Shown here piece by piece: positions 1 through 7,530 of a DNA stretch of 7,530 nucleotides. Position 1 is the first letter of the stretch. Every line of letters begins with the position of its first letter. Made by a program: the position numbers and the translations under genes. Source of the stretch: Candidatus Vampirococcus lugosii (GTDB lineage Bacteria; Patescibacteriota; Gracilibacteria; Absconditabacterales; Absconditicoccaceae); contig NZ_JAEDAM010000078.1 of the NCBI RefSeq assembly GCF_018420025.1, forward strand, positions 1 to 7,530, read 5' to 3'. Below the pieces are notes generated by a model. It was not told the origin of the DNA. It saw nothing but the letters and a program-made list of their open reading frames with translations, and searched no databases.

Positions 1-1
1 T

Positions 2-589
2 AATATCTATGAATTCATATCTGAATACATAGATATTAATTGAAAACCAGTAGCTGTTTATCTTGATCGTCATTCTGCATACAAAATCAATCATCCAAAA
101 GATCAATTTGATAAAGAAATGCTTAGCAGATTACAAGTTGCTTGTAATATATTATGAATTGAAGTTATTTATTCTAAGTGTCCTGAATGAAAATGAAGAG
201 TTGAAAATTCATTTAAAACACATCAAGACAGACTTATAAAAGAGATGAGACTTGCTTGAATTAAAAACATTGTTTCTGCTAATAAATTCTTATATGATTA
301 CTACATACCTAAACATAATAATAAGTTCTCTGTTGAAGCTAAAGTGTCTTGAAACTTCCATGTTCCTATCACTAAATATGAAAAAGAAAATCTTGAATGG
401 TTCTTTGCTAAAAAAGAGAAAAGAATTATTAAAAGAGATTGAACTGTTAATTACATGAATACAAAATATCAAATACATAAAAAACAATATTTACCTGCTT
501 GAAAGCAAGTAAATGTTGTTACATCTATGTTGGGGAAACTTAAAATATTTTCTTGAAATGTAGAATTATTATTTGATATTATTAATTAA
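2..589 (+). CDS. rve/DDE transposase, C-terminal fragment (5' end outside window); table 25
   Basis: With TGA=Gly it reads NIYEFISEYIDINGKPVAVYLDRHSAYKINHPKDQFDKEMLSRLQVACNILGIEVIYSKCPEGKGRVENSFKTHQDRLIKEMRLAGIKN...LFDIIN*. The LDRHS and KGRVEN motifs are the second Asp and the Glu of an integrase-core DDE triad. Stop TAA at 587..589. Confidence 0.85.
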
Positions 590-601
590 TTATTTATATT
601 A

Positions 602-650
602 TTACTGACATTTCTATTTTTGTTTTTTTACTGACATTTTAAAGTTGCTG
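602..650. repeat. IS right terminal inverted repeat (IRR) containing two TTACTGACATTT direct repeats
   Basis: TTACTGACATTT occurs at 602..613 and 628..639. The reverse complement of 606..650 aligns with 3326..3369, with shared blocks CAGCAAAGTT/AAAGTTGCTG, TGTCAGTA and AAATAGAAATGTCA. Confidence 0.6.
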
Positions 651-718
651 TTACAAGATTTATTTTGGGTGAATTTGTCAAATTTTTGGGAGTGAAGAAG
701 TTTATTTTGGACAAATCA

Positions 719-1597
719 TTACAAAATAATATCTTTCATATATCAATTTTTCTCTAAAACTTTTTTTAATTCAGCTCTATTAGCTAAATTAAATCATACT
801 TGGCTCCAAATTTTATGTTTTTCTTCTATTTGATTTTGTATTTTATTAAAAATTTTAACAAAATTTATTGAAATTTGCTCAAAACTTAATCACTCTCTTT
901 TACTATCTATATAATTTTTTTCAAAACAATCTACCAAATTGATACTTTTTCAGTCAACTGAAATATTAAGTAGTTGTTGTCTAGTATTTGCATATTTTAT
1001 GTTTTCTCATTGTCTTATACCATCCCAAAAACTATCTCTAACAATTACGGGTGCTATTATTTCTTTTAGATAATCATGTCAAACATCTGATAATTCTCAT
1101 ATTTTACTATAAACATTTTTAATTTGTTTTTCTCGTATAATATGACAATATTCATGCAAAAATATGTCTAAATAATTATTTTCTTGATTTTTGAATACTT
1201 CAGTTACAATAGAAAACTTTATAATATCACTACCAAATGTAGAACTTGGTAAAAAACTTGGATATATATGGACAGTCTCGTTATTTATTTGGTAGTCCAT
1301 AGTTTTACAAAAACCCTCCACGATTTTTTGTTTGTTTCAATTAAACAATTTTTTCCATTTTTTAATTATATCATCTATCTTGTATTTATATTCAAAATAT
1401 TTTTGTTCCAAAAAGTTATCAACTAATTTTTCTCATTCTGCTTGAGATATATTCTCTATATTAGCCAAACTATAATAACAAAAAAATATTGATTTACGAA
1501 CATGTCATCGTTTGTGGATATGTTTTTTTTCAAAGAGAAATTTTTTGAAAGATATTTTATCTTTTTCTACATCGCATTTTATTTTAAAATTTAGCAT
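719..1597 (-). CDS. 292-aa hypothetical protein with an HExxH motif (putative Zn-metallopeptidase, candidate leader peptidase); table 25
   Basis: Open only with TGA=Gly (10 in-frame TGA codons). ATG at 1597 lies 9 nt after the upstream TAATAA stop; stop TAA at 719..721. Sequence MLNFKIKCDVEKDKISFKKF...NYLDIFLHEYCHIIREKQIKNVYSKIGELSDVGHDYLKEII...KNGYMKDIIL. HEYCH is at 1142..1156. I do not recognise the family, so the function rests on the motif and context only. Confidence 0.7.
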
Positions 1598-1606
1598 GAG
1601 TATTTA

Positions 1607-2989
1607 TTATAATATTTCAATTATCTTTTTTTTATAAAGCATAAATAAAAATTTATTTAATTTTTTTTCATCAATTCAGATCTCTGAAGAAAGTTCAGAT
1701 AAAGAAAAATAATCTTTTTTTAACAATCTTTTTAACAAATATCATGAATCTCTAGTTACCATAGTATTAGCATATCACAAAGACAGAATATATCAATCAT
1801 TTTCTTCTCTGAAAATAATATTAGGTGATACTCTTAACTTTTCTCAAAGAAGAGAAGTAACCTTAATTTTATTTTGTTCCAACAATAGATGTATTTTTTT
1901 TCTATTAACTGGTTTTGCATAAGGATCCATTTGATTTATTTCTCATGTTGTTCACTTTGCTTCCATTCTACATCATCATGTACATTTTGATAAATATTCA
2001 CAAGACACACATGTTTCTGGAATCAAATCTCAATTTCTCCATTCCTGCATATTTTGCCATATTTCATCTAAATTTTTTTGAAATATATTTCAATAAGACA
2101 TGTCAGCATGAGTACATGGTCTAACTTCTCAGTCTGCTCATATTATTGAGGATGTTATTCAAGCAGTACACTTATGTCTAGAAAATTCTGCAAACTCAGG
2201 TATCTCTGACAATAAACACAAAGGATAACATTCTAATATGTCTACATACAATCATTGTTCTTTTTTTAGTCTTACTAAATCAGAAAGACTCAAAATAACA
2301 TCATCCTTATCAACAGCATAATCCATAAAGTTTGGTATGTTTGCTGGCCAAGATCATTTTGTAGCGAAAAAACTTTTAACTCATAGTTCTTTCAAAAAAT
2401 TACCTGTTTCATAAACATGGTCAATATTTAATTTTGTTAGGACCATATTAACTCAAATTTTAATATCCTCATCTAAAGCCGTTTTTATTCAAGAAATAAC
2501 TTTATTAAAATTTCATTCTTTTCAAGTAATTTGATCATGAACTTTTGAATCATAAGAAGTTAATGATGTTAAAATAGACCTCAATCATTTACTTTTTAGC
2601 TCTTGTGCTAATTTTTTTGTTAATAACATAACATTTGAGTTTAAACTGCAGGAGATTCAATGTTCAGAAAGTTGTTCTATTAAGAACAGAACGACATCTT
2701 TTTTGATTAGTGGTTCTCATCAAGTTATTCAAACATGGAAAACTCATGCTTTTTTCAATTGCTCAATAATAATTTTTGCTTTTTCAATATCAAGATGAAT
2801 ATGATTTCTATCAGTAATTTGCCAAGAATTGTAGCAATGTATACAGCTAACATTACAACTACTAGTTACTTCTATCTGCATACTTAATGGTGCAGATAGT
2901 TGTCTAGCAAAGTTTCATTTTAATGAATTTACCTTATTTGATTTTTCTCAGTTGCTACATATTTCATTACAATTATCACATCTATTCAT
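1607..2989 (-). CDS. Radical SAM/SPASM-domain peptide maturase (460 aa) with a C-terminal PqqD-like (RRE-type) domain; table 25
   Basis: Open only with TGA=Gly (29 in-frame TGA codons). MNRCDNCNEICSNGEKS...MQIEVTSSCNVSCIHCYN gives CX3CX2C at 2834..2857. VGITGGEPLIKK gives GGEPL at 2708..2722, with both Gly encoded by TGA. The SPASM signature is CTAGITSSIIGADGEVRPC (CX12GX4C) plus CVSCEYLSKCTGGC (CX2CX5CX3C, 1970..2011). The C-terminal ~80 aa read LRVSPNIIFREENDGYILSLGYANTMVTRDSGYLLKRLLKKDYFSLSELSSEIGIDEKKLNKFLFMLYKKKIIEIL. Stop is TAATAA. Confidence 0.93.
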
Positions 2990-3033
2990 GTTAATGTAAT
3001 ATATATTTAGATAAATACTGCATTGTGTTTAAA

Positions 3034-3060
3034 TCTCCAGCCAGACATTCTGACTGGAGA
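3034..3060 (-). terminator. Stem-loop between precursor and maturase genes (candidate attenuator or partial intrinsic terminator)
   Basis: Minus-strand RNA UCUCCAGUCAG-AAUGU-CUGGCUGGAGA forms an 11-bp stem (one G-U pair) with a 5-nt loop. Only a short UUU follows. It starts 9 nt after the precursor stop and ends 44 nt before the maturase ATG. Confidence 0.5.
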
Positions 3061-3069
3061 TGTTGAAGT

Positions 3070-3207
3070 TTATGAATCGCATGGTGTATTGTCGCAATCA
3101 CATGCATCACACAAATCGCAATTATCACAGTAATCACAACTGTCACATGATTCTGCAACAACATCACCATCACCAAACAAACTAACAAAACCGAGATCCA
3201 GACTCAT
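3070..3207 (-). CDS. 45-aa Cys/Asp-repeat RiPP precursor peptide (8 Cys, each followed by Asp)
   Basis: MSLDLGFVSLFGDGDVVAESCDSCDYCDNCDLCDACDCDNTPCDS*. ATG at 3207 lies 5 nt after a perfect AAGGAGG. It sits directly upstream of, and on the same strand as, the rSAM/SPASM gene. Stop TAA at 3070..3072. It contains no TGA codon, so it is visible in the standard-code track as the 3' part of ORF 3070..3297. Confidence 0.8.
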   Translation of the reverse strand: MSLDLGFVSLFGDGDVVAESCDSCDYCDNCDLCDACDCDNTPCDS

Positions 3208-3212
3208 AAATA

Positions 3213-3219
3213 CCTCCTT
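3213..3219 (-). promoter_or_regulatory. Shine-Dalgarno site AAGGAGG for the precursor peptide
   Basis: Plus-strand CCTCCTT is AAGGAGG on the minus strand, with a 5-nt spacer (TATTT) to the ATG at 3207. Confidence 0.65.
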
Positions 3220-3276
3220 TTTTTTATAAAGAATTAATGTTACAATAATTACAACCATTGCAACTACTGTAATATT

Positions 3277-3304
3277 CTTATAAAGATCTTTTTTCAAAAA
3301 TCAA
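3277..3304 (-). promoter_or_regulatory. Candidate sigma70-like promoter for the cassette (TTGATT-16 nt-TATAAG)
   Basis: The minus strand reads TTGATT (3304..3299), 16 nt, then TATAAG (3282..3277), about 70 nt upstream of the precursor ATG and about 22 nt from the IS end. In DNA this AT-rich, such matches arise easily by chance. Confidence 0.2.
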
Positions 3305-3325
3305 CACTTTTTGGCTCTATTGTGC

Positions 3326-3371
3326 CAGCAAAGTTAAATTGTCAGTACTAGGCACAAATAGAAATGTCAAT
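3326..3371. repeat. IS left terminal inverted repeat (IRL)
   Basis: CAGCAAAGTTAAATTGTCAGTACTAGGCACAAATAGAAATGTCAAT. The two (A)AAT(T)GTCA(G/A)T motifs at 3336..3347 and 3362..3371 mirror the two TTACTGACATTT repeats of the IRR. Confidence 0.6.
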
Positions 3372-3407
3372 ATAATAATATTGTTTTATTTTTTAAAAAA
3401 CAATATT

Positions 3408-4551
3408 ATGAATTTACTTTATACTGACAAACAAATGAACAAAGTCCGTATTATCCAAAAACTTATCGATAATAAGATAAACATCAAAGATGTTTGTGAT
3501 GCTTTAAGTTGTTCTGAAAGAACTGTTTATAGATATAAATCTACTCTTATCAATGAATGACCTCCTGGATTCATTCATTGATTAAAATGAAAAGTTTCCA
3601 ATCACAATCCATATTCCTCAAAACATCAAGACTTAGATAGAATAATAACTCAAAATAAGTTTATTTGATTTTGACCCACATTTTTATCTGAAAAGCTTCT
3701 TGAGATCTATTGATTCTATATCAATAAAGAATCTCTTAGAAAAAGAATGATTAGATTGTGATTATGGTTACCAAAACCAAAAAAGACTGTAGTTAAAAGG
3801 AAAAAAAGAGAAAGAAGTAAATCATTTTGATTACTTATTCAAATTGATTGATCTTAATCATGATTGGTTTGAAGATTGATCTGAATATTGTCTCATAAAT
3901 GCTGTTGATGATGCTACCTGAAAAACTACTCATGCTAAATTTACTACTTGAGAGTCCCTTATTAATATCTATGAATTCATATCTGAATACATAGATATTA
4001 ATTGAAAACCAGTAGCTGTTTATCTTGATCGTCATTCTGCATACAAAATCAATCATCCAAAAGATCAATTTGATAAAGAAATGCTTAGCAGATTACAAGT
4101 TGCTTGTAATATATTATGAATTGAAGTTATTTATTCTAAGTGTCCTGAATGAAAATGAAGAGTTGAAAATTCATTTAAAACACATCAAGACAGACTTATA
4201 AAAGAGATGAGACTTGCTTGAATTAAAAACATTGTTTCTGCTAATAAATTCTTATATGATTACTACATACCTAAACATAATAATAAGTTCTCTGTTGAAG
4301 CTAAAGTGTCTTGAAACTTCCATGTTCCTATCACTAAATATGAAAAAGAAAATCTTGAATGGTTCTTTGCTAAAAAAGAGAAAAGAATTATTAAAAGAGA
4401 TTGAACTGTTAATTACATGAATACAAAATATCAAATACATAAAAAACAATATTTACCTGCTTGAAAGCAAGTAAATGTTGTTACATCTATGTTGGGGAAA
4501 CTTAAAATATTTTCTTGAAATGTAGAATTATTATTTGATATTATTAATTAA
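3408..4551 (+). CDS. HTH + rve/DDE transposase (~380 aa) in two frames; needs a +1 shift at 3855 (possible pseudogene or recoding); table 25
   Basis: Frame 1, 3408..3854: MNLLYTDKQMNKVRIIQKLIDNKINIKDVCDALSCSERTVYRYKSTLINEGPPGFIHGLKGKVSNH...FIGFGPTFLSEKLLEIYGFYINKESLRKRMIRLGLW...SFGLLIQIDGS, then TAA. Frame 2, 3856..4551: NHDWFEDGSEYCLINAVDDATGKTTHAKF...YLDRHSAY...CPEGKGRVENSFKTHQDRLIKEMRLAGI...*. There are 21 in-frame TGA=Gly codons. The joined sequence QIDGS|NHDWFED matches the conserved first-Asp region of this transposase type. Confidence 0.85.
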
Positions 4552-4563
4552 TTATTTATATTA

Positions 4564-4612
4564 TTACTGACATTTCTATTTTTGTTTTTTTACTGACATT
4601 TTAAAGTTGCTG
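4564..4612. repeat. IS right terminal inverted repeat (IRR), copy 2 of 602..650
   Basis: Identical to 602..650. TTACTGACATTT occurs at 4564..4575 and 4590..4601, and the repeat ends in AAAGTTGCTG. Confidence 0.6.
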
Positions 4613-4680
4613 TTACAAGATTTATTTTGGGTGAATTTGTCAAATTTTTGGGAGTGAAGAAGTTTATTTTGGACAAATCA

Positions 4681-5559
4681 TTACAAAATAATATCTTTCA
4701 TATATCAATTTTTCTCTAAAACTTTTTTTAATTCAGCTCTATTAGCTAAATTAAATCATACTTGGCTCCAAATTTTATGTTTTTCTTCTATTTGATTTTG
4801 TATTTTATTAAAAATTTTAACAAAATTTATTGAAATTTGCTCAAAACTTAATCACTCTCTTTTACTATCTATATAATTTTTTTCAAAACAATCTACCAAA
4901 TTGATACTTTTTCAGTCAACTGAAATATTAAGTAGTTGTTGTCTAGTATTTGCATATTTTATGTTTTCTCATTGTCTTATACCATCCCAAAAACTATCTC
5001 TAACAATTACGGGTGCTATTATTTCTTTTAGATAATCATGTCAAACATCTGATAATTCTCATATTTTACTATAAACATTTTTAATTTGTTTTTCTCGTAT
5101 AATATGACAATATTCATGCAAAAATATGTCTAAATAATTATTTTCTTGATTTTTGAATACTTCAGTTACAATAGAAAACTTTATAATATCACTACCAAAT
5201 GTAGAACTTGGTAAAAAACTTGGATATATATGGACAGTCTCGTTATTTATTTGGTAGTCCATAGTTTTACAAAAACCCTCCACGATTTTTTGTTTGTTTC
5301 AATTAAACAATTTTTTCCATTTTTTAATTATATCATCTATCTTGTATTTATATTCAAAATATTTTTGTTCCAAAAAGTTATCAACTAATTTTTCTCATTC
5401 TGCTTGAGATATATTCTCTATATTAGCCAAACTATAATAACAAAAAAATATTGATTTACGAACATGTCATCGTTTGTGGATATGTTTTTTTTCAAAGAGA
5501 AATTTTTTGAAAGATATTTTATCTTTTTCTACATCGCATTTTATTTTAAAATTTAGCAT
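4681..5559 (-). CDS. HExxH-motif hypothetical protein, second identical copy
   Basis: Identical to 719..1597 shifted by 3962. Confidence 0.7.
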
Positions 5560-5568
5560 GAGTATTTA

Positions 5569-6951
5569 TTATAATATTTCAATTATCTTTTTTTTATAAA
5601 GCATAAATAAAAATTTATTTAATTTTTTTTCATCAATTCAGATCTCTGAAGAAAGTTCAGATAAAGAAAAATAATCTTTTTTTAACAATCTTTTTAACAA
5701 ATATCATGAATCTCTAGTTACCATAGTATTAGCATATCACAAAGACAGAATATATCAATCATTTTCTTCTCTGAAAATAATATTAGGTGATACTCTTAAC
5801 TTTTCTCAAAGAAGAGAAGTAACCTTAATTTTATTTTGTTCCAACAATAGATGTATTTTTTTTCTATTAACTGGTTTTGCATAAGGATCCATTTGATTTA
5901 TTTCTCATGTTGTTCACTTTGCTTCCATTCTACATCATCATGTACATTTTGATAAATATTCACAAGACACACATGTTTCTGGAATCAAATCTCAATTTCT
6001 CCATTCCTGCATATTTTGCCATATTTCATCTAAATTTTTTTGAAATATATTTCAATAAGACATGTCAGCATGAGTACATGGTCTAACTTCTCAGTCTGCT
6101 CATATTATTGAGGATGTTATTCAAGCAGTACACTTATGTCTAGAAAATTCTGCAAACTCAGGTATCTCTGACAATAAACACAAAGGATAACATTCTAATA
6201 TGTCTACATACAATCATTGTTCTTTTTTTAGTCTTACTAAATCAGAAAGACTCAAAATAACATCATCCTTATCAACAGCATAATCCATAAAGTTTGGTAT
6301 GTTTGCTGGCCAAGATCATTTTGTAGCGAAAAAACTTTTAACTCATAGTTCTTTCAAAAAATTACCTGTTTCATAAACATGGTCAATATTTAATTTTGTT
6401 AGGACCATATTAACTCAAATTTTAATATCCTCATCTAAAGCCGTTTTTATTCAAGAAATAACTTTATTAAAATTTCATTCTTTTCAAGTAATTTGATCAT
6501 GAACTTTTGAATCATAAGAAGTTAATGATGTTAAAATAGACCTCAATCATTTACTTTTTAGCTCTTGTGCTAATTTTTTTGTTAATAACATAACATTTGA
6601 GTTTAAACTGCAGGAGATTCAATGTTCAGAAAGTTGTTCTATTAAGAACAGAACGACATCTTTTTTGATTAGTGGTTCTCATCAAGTTATTCAAACATGG
6701 AAAACTCATGCTTTTTTCAATTGCTCAATAATAATTTTTGCTTTTTCAATATCAAGATGAATATGATTTCTATCAGTAATTTGCCAAGAATTGTAGCAAT
6801 GTATACAGCTAACATTACAACTACTAGTTACTTCTATCTGCATACTTAATGGTGCAGATAGTTGTCTAGCAAAGTTTCATTTTAATGAATTTACCTTATT
6901 TGATTTTTCTCAGTTGCTACATATTTCATTACAATTATCACATCTATTCAT
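5569..6951 (-). CDS. Radical SAM/SPASM peptide maturase with C-terminal PqqD-like domain, second identical copy
   Basis: Identical to 1607..2989 shifted by 3962. Confidence 0.93.
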
Positions 6952-6995
6952 GTTAATGTAATATATATTTAGATAAATACTGCATTGTGTTTAAA

Positions 6996-7022
6996 TCTCC
7001 AGCCAGACATTCTGACTGGAGA
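6996..7022 (-). terminator. Precursor-maturase intergenic stem-loop, second copy
   Basis: Identical to 3034..3060 shifted by 3962. Confidence 0.5.
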
Positions 7023-7031
7023 TGTTGAAGT

Positions 7032-7169
7032 TTATGAATCGCATGGTGTATTGTCGCAATCACATGCATCACACAAATCGCAATTATCACAGTAATCACA
7101 ACTGTCACATGATTCTGCAACAACATCACCATCACCAAACAAACTAACAAAACCGAGATCCAGACTCAT
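7032..7169 (-). CDS. 45-aa Cys/Asp-repeat RiPP precursor peptide, second identical copy
   Basis: Identical to 3070..3207 shifted by 3962. The AAGGAGG site is at 7175..7181. Confidence 0.8.
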   Translation of the reverse strand: MSLDLGFVSLFGDGDVVAESCDSCDYCDNCDLCDACDCDNTPCDS

Positions 7170-7287
7170 AAATACCTCCTTTTTTTTATAAAGAATTAAT
7201 GTTACAATAATTACAACCATTGCAACTACTGTAATATTCTTATAAAGATCTTTTTTCAAAAATCAACACTTTTTGGCTCTATTGTGC

Positions 7288-7530
7288 CAGCAAAGTTAAA
7301 TTGTCAGTACTAGGCACAAATAGAAATGTCAATATAATAATATTGTTTTATTTTTTAAAAAACAATATTATGAATTTACTTTATACTGACAAACAAATGA
7401 ACAAAGTCCGTATTATCCAAAAACTTATCGATAATAAGATAAACATCAAAGATGTTTGTGATGCTTTAAGTTGTTCTGAAAGAACTGTTTATAGATATAA
7501 ATCTACTCTTATCAATGAATGACCTCCTGG
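7288..7530 (+). mobile_element. Left (5') part of a third IS copy, truncated by the window end
   Basis: Identical to 3326..3568 (IRL plus the transposase N-terminus). Confidence 0.7.
7370..7530 (+). CDS. Transposase N-terminal (HTH) fragment; 3' end outside window
   Basis: Identical to 3408..3568: MNLLYTDKQMNKVRIIQKLIDNKINIKDVCDALSCSERTVYRYKSTLINEGPP... Confidence 0.85.

Follow-up and report, generated by a model that had tools for sequence, protein, structure and literature searches.

Radical S-adenosylmethionine (SAM)/SPASM peptide maturases are a main source of new peptide chemistry. In two described systems, PapB and QhpD, a Cys residue and a residue with a carboxylate side chain act as donor/acceptor pair (PMC9413430, PMC8172795). 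PapB links Cys to Asp in motifs ranging from CX0D to CX6D, which makes a vicinal Cys-Asp thioether enzymatically feasible (PMC9413430), while the radical SAM/SPASM enzyme of the QhpD/QhpC system joins the sulfur of Cys to Asp and Glu methylene carbons (PMC8172795). The locus analyzed here lies on a 7530-bp contig of Candidatus Vampirococcus lugosii (NZ_JAEDAM010000078.1), which was studied over its whole length and is referred to as the window. It combines a gene for a 45-residue peptide with a Cys-Asp array, a radical SAM/SPASM maturase gene, and a gene for a 292-residue HExxH protein (Table 1). Ca. Vampirococcus lugosii is an epibiotic predator of the Absconditabacteria (SR1). The maturase (P0001) and a protein of this species are 100% identical. 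The array is proposed to be the core of the precursor of a ribosomally made, post-translationally modified peptide (RiPP), belonging to a widespread, previously uncharacterized family that would be modified by a dedicated radical SAM/SPASM enzyme; we put the probability of this reading at about one half.

Translation of the minus strand confirmed that the core peptide contains eight Cys residues, each immediately followed by Asp (8/8), as had been stated in a sequence-only reading of this DNA. The codons of the six units with a strict 3-residue period (3097-3147) were exactly those listed there (tgt gac agt / tgt gat tac / tgt gat aat / tgc gat ttg / tgt gat gca / tgt gat), and the period then gives way to a CD-NTP-CD-S segment (tgc gac aat aca cca tgc gat tca taa). 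Counted from the ATG at 3205-3207, Cys occupies positions 21, 24, 27, 30, 33, 36, 38, and 43. The DNA pattern (TGYGAYNNN)x3+TGYGAY occurred three times in each copy of the array, versus 0.00 times expected from 200 dinucleotide-preserving shuffles of the window. Since Tandem Repeats Finder detected only a weak period of 9/18 bp (scores 33-49), the array was interpreted as a degenerate coding repeat with a variable third codon and not as a microsatellite. The 45-residue start was favored over a TTG-started open reading frame (ORF) of 75 residues because of the AGGAGG sequence located 5 nt before the ATG; the counterpart in the closely related locus L006 carries AAAGGAGGTG before its ATG. An exact look-up of the 45-residue precursor gave no match, the protein database entry being the TTG-started 75-residue form (P0123), and NCBIfam models were matched neither by the window precursor (E<=0.01) nor by ten of its family relatives (E<=1). 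None of 200 shuffled sequences was as stable as the stem-loop that separates the precursor and maturase genes. A scan for consensus terminators found none, despite this strong hairpin, whose role is probably to stabilize or attenuate the transcript. By inspection of the unfolded sequence, a G+C-rich inverted repeat (CCGGCTGTG...CACAGCCGG) was seen at the equivalent place in L006.

The enzyme encoded next to the precursor matched the Pfam models Radical_SAM (PF04055, 86.6 bits, cut-off 29.5) and SPASM (PF13186, 34.8 bits, cut-off 21.5), with a CX3CX2C motif at C45/C49/C52 and seven Cys residues in the SPASM region (C258, C274, C292, C327, C330, C336, C340). The residues invariant among 34 family members include the three radical-SAM Cys, the seven Cys from C258 to C340, D355, R394, and E396. 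Asp355 lies 15 residues past the last SPASM Cys; in PqqE, an Asp is a ligand of an auxiliary cluster. An AlphaFold model of the enzyme was confident (predicted local distance difference test [pLDDT] score 90.7), with residues 1-15 disordered. According to this model and to Pfam, only about 38 residues precede CX3CX2C and an N-terminal, PqqD-like RiPP recognition element (RRE) is absent. Past the SPASM region, residues 385-459 form a compact C-terminal domain of four strands followed by three helices, a predicted topology that resembles an RRE or winged helix. Both the domains and the conserved adjacency to a leader-core peptide were found, in line with a generic radical SAM/SPASM RiPP maturase system.

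The maturase passed none of the NCBIfam equivalog cut-offs. Its best scores were with NirJ2 (134 bits), AhbD (130), PqqE (122), ScmE (102), WgkB (99), and MftC (98), whereas the PapB model (NF047865) ranked 24th of 87 matches at 71.4 bits, versus a cut-off of 340. The enzyme is thus not PapB-like. Scores with sactisynthase models were 74 bits for AlbA (cut-off 850) and 72 bits for StsB (cut-off 625), and the models for the SCIFF maturase (TIGR03974) and QhpD were absent from the best 25 NCBIfam matches. By sequence, the closest solved structures were SkfB (E=1.6e-14), PqqE, and SuiB (E ~1e-14); by fold, they were SuiB, SkfB, anSME, TigE, and PqqE, with no entry for CteB among the top 50 fold matches listed.

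The nearest maturases (49-57% identity) were found on metagenome contigs that also use genetic code 25, on which the gene order precursor, radical SAM enzyme, and protein of about 294 residues is kept. Their precursors, together with other close homologs, are MNIGFVSLFGEDGTIHACDTCDYCDNCDQCDSCDCDNTP (L006), ...SCDTCDCDYCDSCDCDNTACDGDWP (L005), ...SCDTCDCDYCDSCDCDNTPCDGDWG (L331), ...QCDSCDCDNTSSGGCDSDSGDGCDTAQ (L001), ...ACDNSCDCYSCDTCY (L046), and ...DCECYGTSCDCDGSPSD (L038). In these close relatives the hydrophobic leader motif (L/I)GF(V/I/L)S(L/I)(F/W), followed by G in its fuller form, and the CD dipeptides persist. The strict 3-residue period was seen only in the window and in L006 (CDT CDY CDN CDQ CDS CD CDNTP) and is broken in other close relatives by CDCD and CDNT...CD units. 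Between the window and L006 the codons for Cys and Asp are the same and codons for the third residue differ (S>T, L>Q, A>S), which indicates selection on Cys and Asp and not on the variable residue.

The wider family was surveyed in one genome per GTDB species by a pattern-plus-tblastn scan based on a 9-sequence alignment. Relatives of the maturase occurred in 328 stretches of these genomes. For most of the best 56 of these 328, the alignment covers almost the whole enzyme and takes in the C-terminal domain (to residues 457-460). Their hosts are Candidate Phyla Radiation bacteria (CPR; Paceibacterota, Parcubacteria, Saccharibacteria, Moranbacteria, Buchananbacteria, Shapirobacteria, and Peribacteria), as well as Clostridia (among them the cultured Lachnospiraceae bacterium 10-1), Bacteroidales, Anaerolineae, and others. 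In most loci of the wider family the precursor lies directly downstream of the maturase, and in 38 loci the maturase adjoins a short precursor whose core is densely packed with Cys; the pairing of peptide and enzyme that had been noticed in the window is conserved in about 40 loci. Across 37 loci of the CD type, the conserved system consists of maturase and precursor, and some of the loci add the HExxH protein. A literature search retrieved nothing relevant on RiPPs with Cys-Asp repeats or on this family in CPR bacteria or Saccharibacteria.

To be included, a precursor had to lie beside a maturase and have at least 4 Cys in its last 32 residues, a rule that forces Cys density but not a preference for acidic residues at position +1. 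In 37 precursors (window excluded), 62% of Cys residues were followed by Asp or Glu at +1, against a mean of 26% in within-core shuffles (z=+15). At +2, acidic residues were depleted (7% versus 26%, z=-7.3), and at +4, the CX3D register, their frequency was that of the background (25% versus 26%, z=-0.5). Residues at +1 were D (123), E (23), Y (20), H (14), N (13), F (9), and others (33), and consecutive Cys were spaced by 2 residues in 77 and by 3 residues in 55 of 198 cases. By these comparisons, the conserved unit of the peptide family is the Cys-Asp (Cys-acidic) pair itself and not the CX3D spacing. The periodic array is one lineage's regular form of this dipeptide core, and the window peptide is the family's most regular member.

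In one sub-clade of the family, every second residue of the core is Cys and acidic residues are few or lacking (L017:4902-5030, ACYCNCGCACHVTG; L018:4824-4952, ACYCHCACACHVTG; L015:4233-4397, ACYCDCGCDCYVVS). A sister maturase clade (about 29-31% identity; L039, L042, L050, L052) pairs with unrelated peptides that are encoded upstream and carry one or two copies of SCRGW(C/S/A)KI; its hosts are Fretibacterium, Treponema, Clostridia, and Sodaliphilus.

A search for the pattern (C-D-X)x4, which the sequence-only reading had recommended, was run at the DNA level in two collections and did not discriminate. The pattern is frequent in metagenomes and viral contigs, and the matches listed (L088-L327) were nearly all perfect 9-bp microsatellites (CDG, CDW, CDC, CDL, and others), often out of frame, and the ORFs bearing them were mostly short stop-to-stop frames with a median of 67 residues. 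Among them, a related radical SAM gene was nearby in 1 of 240 loci. Arrays with a variable third residue occurred on giant-virus and phage contigs (L189, L230, L296, L311, L312). Another viral contig (L320:221-4461; IMGVR_UViG_3300002378_000184, 16323-27018) encodes a 972-residue protein (phrog_18190), tail-fiber-like as judged by eye only, whose last ~150 residues consist of a long periodic array (Cys-(Asp/Glu)-X / Cys-X-X). Directly after it comes a radical SAM/SPASM gene with PapB as its best family match (204 bits, full length) and the SCIFF maturase and QhpD as the next best. This arrangement points to thioether cross-links in a structural protein of the phage. As an independent pairing of a C-(D/E)-X array with a PapB-like radical SAM enzyme, the phage locus was counted in favor of the proposed RiPP family.

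The sequence-only reading had compared the locus with freyrasin (PapA/PapB), in which case the window peptide would be a ranthipeptide with CX3D thioethers. Its five CX3D pairs (21-25, 24-28, 27-31, 30-34, and 33-37) were indeed present in the window, PapB is known to prefer CX3D and to tolerate nested and in-line motifs (PMC9413430), and the phage array stands beside an enzyme that matches PapB best. However, only 5 of the 8 Cys have a CX3D partner, C36, C38, and C43 being left unpaired, whereas Asp is found at +1 of all 8. The absence of enrichment at +4 in the homologs, the broken period in close relatives, the low PapB score of the maturase, and the lack of an N-terminal RRE further argue against this explanation. 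The analogy thus stood for a core composed of Cys plus a carboxylate residue and failed for the CX3D register and for a PapB-like enzyme; a freyrasin-like product is considered highly doubtful.

Consistent with the proposed RiPP family, the precursor, maturase, and HExxH genes are co-oriented in the window and syntenic in relatives. In this system, the winged-helix-like C-terminal domain of the maturase would bind the leader, after which the enzyme would abstract a carbon-bound hydrogen from a residue adjoining or close to each Cys, most likely from the carbon beside the carboxylate of Asp. Joining of the Cys sulfur to that carbon would yield a chain of small thioether rings, and the HExxH protein would then remove the leader. 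Because no exporter is encoded, the product may have an intracellular function, bind metal, or exit via a general pathway. S-C cross-linking is the most likely activity of the maturase. A link to the neighboring residue was favored over CX3D since +1 is the sole register that is conserved family-wide, since it alone gives every Cys of the window peptide a partner, and since PapB cross-links directly adjacent Cys and Asp, if inefficiently (PMC9413430). Cys(i) to Asp(i+1) appears to be the only donor-acceptor register that is open to each Cys of all Asp-rich members. At +1, the tolerated residues (D, N, Y, H, F, and, via its gamma carbon, E) each have a methylene beside a pi system, which would stabilize a carbon radical.

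In a more specific version, each Cys(i) sulfur would be joined to the beta-carbon of Asp(i+1), or of Tyr, His, Asn, or Phe in variants, to give a RiPP scaffold not seen before, a string of as many as eight seven-membered thioether rings in succession, with a SPASM lineage unrelated to PapB/QhpD as the catalyst. This version is tentative and, on balance, unlikely. If true, such a string-of-rings family, with its wide distribution among genome-reduced CPR bacteria, could function in predation, metal handling, or signaling.

Several observations weigh against the RiPP reading or its proposed chemistry. The maturase lies outside the known clade of Cys-Asp/Glu thioether enzymes (PapB, SCIFF, QhpD) and is about equally close to enzymes that form C-C bonds (PqqE, SuiB), form alpha-thioethers (SkfB), or decarboxylate (AhbD/NirJ). 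The PqqD Pfam model did not match its C-terminal domain, for which only weak helix-turn-helix hits were obtained. With PapB, CX0D motifs are processed only incompletely (PMC9413430). L017 and L018 (CYCNCGCACHVTG, CYCHCACACHVTG) lack any acidic residue; Asp is therefore not a universal acceptor in the family. No ABC-transporter ATPase signature was present within ~3.5 kb in 36 of the 37 CD-type loci, the residues D, E, H, and Y at +1 are also good metal ligands, and the assignment of the HExxH protein as a peptidase is based on its motif only, its structure model (of a version with TGA translated as Trp) having an unusable pLDDT of 34.

Such observations bear on two alternatives. In one, the maturase performs other radical chemistry on Cys-X units: alpha-carbon (sactionine) thioethers, C-C cross-links, or an AhbD-like oxidative decarboxylation of Asp, possibly yielding dehydroalanine that captures Cys. 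Its family scores, highest for NirJ2, AhbD, and PqqE, and its closest solved relatives, among which SkfB forms alpha-thioethers and PqqE and SuiB form C-C bonds, are in line with such reactions, as are the tolerance of Y, H, N, and F beside D and E at the acceptor position and the unrelated SCRGW(C/S/A)KI substrates of the sister clade. These similarities are, however, weak (E ~1e-14 and far under curated cut-offs) and reflect the shared radical SAM/SPASM core; this alternative is deemed unlikely.

In the other, the array is mainly metal-binding, in the manner of a metallothionein or metallophore, as the sequence-only reading had offered as its alternative, or binds an Fe-S cluster, and the radical SAM enzyme does limited tailoring or uses the peptide as a scaffold. 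Predominant Cys-Cys spacings of 2 and 3 resemble CxC/CxxC metal sites, D, E, H, and Y account for 77% of the +1 residues, acid-free CxCxCxCxC cores exist, and the lack of an exporter signature in nearly all loci is compatible with an intracellular role. Asn and Phe, present at +1 in 22 cases, are not ligands, however, and the conserved leader motif, the dedicated radical SAM/SPASM enzyme with its RRE-like domain, and the peptidase-like partner are hallmarks of enzymatic maturation. A primarily metal-binding peptide is regarded as distinctly unlikely.

An exhaustive HMMER search for relatives of the HExxH protein gave 91 cluster representatives, nearly all of about 290 residues. In an alignment of 46 of these 91, only H148, E149, H152, E179, and N204 were invariant. 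An HExxH...E signature is typical of gluzincin metallopeptidases. Searches of Pfam and the PDB found no relatives of the family. The HExxH gene accompanies that of the maturase in the close clade and in some Patescibacteria (L009, L016, L046, L332), and a 241-residue HExxH ORF in L333, judged by eye, is a probable further case. On the basis of its motif and synteny, the protein may be a gluzincin-type metallopeptidase and is a candidate for removal of the leader.

Table 1. Features of the 7530-bp window of Ca. Vampirococcus lugosii, with the basis on which each was assigned.
Feature	Position	Strand	Basis or remarks
Precursor gene, copy 1 (45 residues + stop; MSLDLGFVSLFGDGDVVAESCDSCDYCDNCDLCDACDCDNTPCDS)	3070..3207	-	ORF; homologs adjoin maturase homologs in L001, L005, L006, L331, L046, L038
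Core peptide S20-S45 (SCDSCDYCDNCDLCDACDCDNTPCDS), eight Cys-Asp dipeptides	3073..3150	-	Reverse-complement translation
Leader, ~residues 1-19/20	3148-3207	-	Conserved motif LGFVSLFG
Shine-Dalgarno sequence AGGAGG	3213..3218	-	5 nt 5' of ATG
13-bp stem-loop without T-run, between precursor stop and maturase start	3033..3061	-	-23.4 kcal/mol, z=-5.4
Radical SAM/SPASM maturase (460 residues in code 25)	1607..2989	-	Pfam, alignment, structure model
292-residue accessory protein, HExxH...E	719..1597	-	ORF, HMMER family alignment
Second identical cassette	4681..7169	-	292-residue protein gene 4681-5559, maturase 5569-6951, precursor 7032-7169, core 7035-7112
ISNCY-family insertion sequence (IS), ~1.3 kb	3320..4618	+	NF033594, inverted repeats
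Transposase split over two frames	3408-3857 and 3793-4551	+	A single additional base near 3855
Partial first IS copy (transposase 3' part and right inverted repeat 596-656)	1..656	+	
Partial third IS copy (left inverted repeat 7282-7343 and transposase 5' part)	7282..7530	+	

With translation table 11 only short ORFs were obtained, while reading of TGA as a sense codon gave long ORFs. In the maturase ORF, Gly is encoded by 29 TGA codons versus 1 GGN codon, and the GGEP motif is among the positions with TGA-coded Gly. The genetic code of the window is code 25 (TGA=Gly). The precursor ORF contains no TGA and therefore reads alike in codes 11 and 25. In seven code-25 precursors (window, L001, L005, L006, L331, L046, L038), all 24 Gly codons were GGN and none was TGA, and TGA-rich Gly usage was seen in maturase genes adjoining such precursors (TGA:GGN ratios in this comparison of 17:1 in the window, 20:2 in L001, and 5:0 in L006). 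TGA avoidance in the precursors may be a matter of expression level, of the speed of decoding in so short an ORF, or of recent transfer.

The window consists of a 3962-bp unit that is repeated 1.9 times with 100% identity (3568/3568 positions at offset 3962), which accounts for the second, identical core; the order of elements is IS (part)-cassette-IS-cassette-IS (part). The source reads of V. lugosii were 2x125-bp Illumina reads from cells amplified by multiple displacement amplification (MDA) or MALBAC and assembled with SPAdes (PMC8080830). Given short reads, MDA-amplified DNA, and SPAdes assembly, the 1.9 copies are most likely an assembler walk around a loop made by identical IS copies. 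An IS-flanked cassette, a tandem array, and a free circle are all conceivable as the actual structure. An end-overlap test for circularity of L005 was negative, and the near-equality of its length (3961 bp) to that of the window unit was taken as a coincidence of gene content. The genome paper of V. lugosii makes no mention of radical SAM, transposase, or plasmid (PMC8080830).

The two parts of the transposase matched model positions 2-135 and 136-358 of NF033594 with 96.9 and 206.3 bits, respectively (cut-off 250 for a single protein). Imperfect 61-bp inverted repeats bound the IS on the left (3320-3381) and right (596-656, equal to 4558-4618), with a score of 53 versus 18.9 ± 2.9 in shuffles, and set the cassette limits at 657-3319; each repeat holds two ACTGACATTT-like motifs. 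The extra base at ~3850-3860 (TCT T AAT) splits the transposase exactly at its DGS/HDWF catalytic region. In L005, the homologous transposase is frameshifted elsewhere (L005:3276-3321), and programmed frameshifting was rejected because the site differs between the two; the frameshift looks like decay or a sequencing error. Transposase genes also lie beside the cassette in L005 and L006. Two further repeats were noted: a 22-nt inverted repeat with 91% complementarity (AAATTTAGCATGAGTATTTATT / AAAAACTACTCATGCTAAATTT), with arms at the junction of the maturase and 292-residue protein genes (1587-1608) and inside the transposase gene (3921-3942), and a 20-bp tandem repeat of two units (AATTAATTATTTATATTATT) at 564-604 (also 4526-4566), over the transposase stop and the start of the right inverted repeat.

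In two other samples, L328:1841-2881 and L329:443-1483 were 99.2% identical to positions 663-1701 of the window. There, the 292-residue protein gene and the last 95 bp of the maturase gene are kept beside pheS, and the precursor and most of the maturase gene are deleted. Since only this segment is kept, precursor and maturase appear to be variably present among Vampirococcus strains. Together with the flanking ISNCY copies and their frameshifted transposase, these remnants might suggest that the cassette is an unexpressed passenger decaying between insertion sequences and that the peptide is a relic. Yet its three ORFs are intact, the precursor has a strong Shine-Dalgarno sequence, the hairpin is conserved, and only 2 mismatches in 1329 bp across precursor and maturase were seen in L007, all of which makes a relic very improbable.

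The proposed RiPP family is of interest for a simple sequence rule, a carboxylate residue after Cys with spacings of 2-3, and for an unusual enzyme architecture, with a recognition-like domain at the C-terminus. CPR bacteria have tiny genomes with few known natural-product genes, and retention of the family in such genomes suggests an important role. As its most regular member, the V. lugosii peptide would be an ideal substrate on which to elucidate the chemistry, and the comparative result shifts attention to the Cys(i)-Asp(i+1) register and to Asp-free variants beside CX3D.

Among described systems, freyrasin PapA/PapB (NF047865) shares with the window a short precursor with repeated Cys-Asp pairing, CX3D pairs, and a radical SAM/SPASM maturase. 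It differs in that the RRE-like domain of the window enzyme is C-terminal instead of N-terminal, that the Cys-Asp units of the window are contiguous dipeptides, and that CX3D is not conserved in homologs. The SCIFF system (TIGR03973/TIGR03974; CteA/CteB) is similar in its precursor of about 45 residues with many C-terminal Cys, its minimal two-gene composition, and its usual lack of an exporter or protease; however, window precursor and maturase miss the SCIFF models, and the window family is rich in CPR bacteria whereas SCIFF belongs to Clostridia. The substrate of QhpD, in contrast, is a protein subunit (quinohemoprotein amine dehydrogenase gamma) with three widely spaced links. Unlike sactipeptides of the AlbA, SkfB, and ThnB type, the window core has no Cys-free acceptor half and its maturase no N-terminal RRE. 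The CXXX-repeat (TIGR04115), ACGX-repeat (TIGR04340), and CefB (NF038107) families have a fixed short Cys period and a radical SAM/SPASM maturase in common with the window. Their periods are 4 or 5, not 3, they have no obligatory acidic residue after Cys, and the window maturase scored 71 bits against 400 for the ACGX model, with the CXXX and CefB models outside its top 25. To our knowledge, these three families are defined by genome mining only and their chemistry is uncharacterized. The PqqE/MftC/AhbD-NirJ branch gave the best profile scores over the full radical SAM plus SPASM length, all far under cut-offs, but its members act on Glu/Tyr, Val/Tyr, or tetrapyrrole propionates and not on Cys arrays. 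By curated models, the window would thus belong to the class of radical SAM/SPASM RiPP systems and fall outside the PapB, SCIFF, sactipeptide, CXXX-repeat, ACGX, and CefB families. No curated NCBIfam model or paper found describes its family, which differs from the known ones in enzyme architecture, core rule, and taxonomic range.

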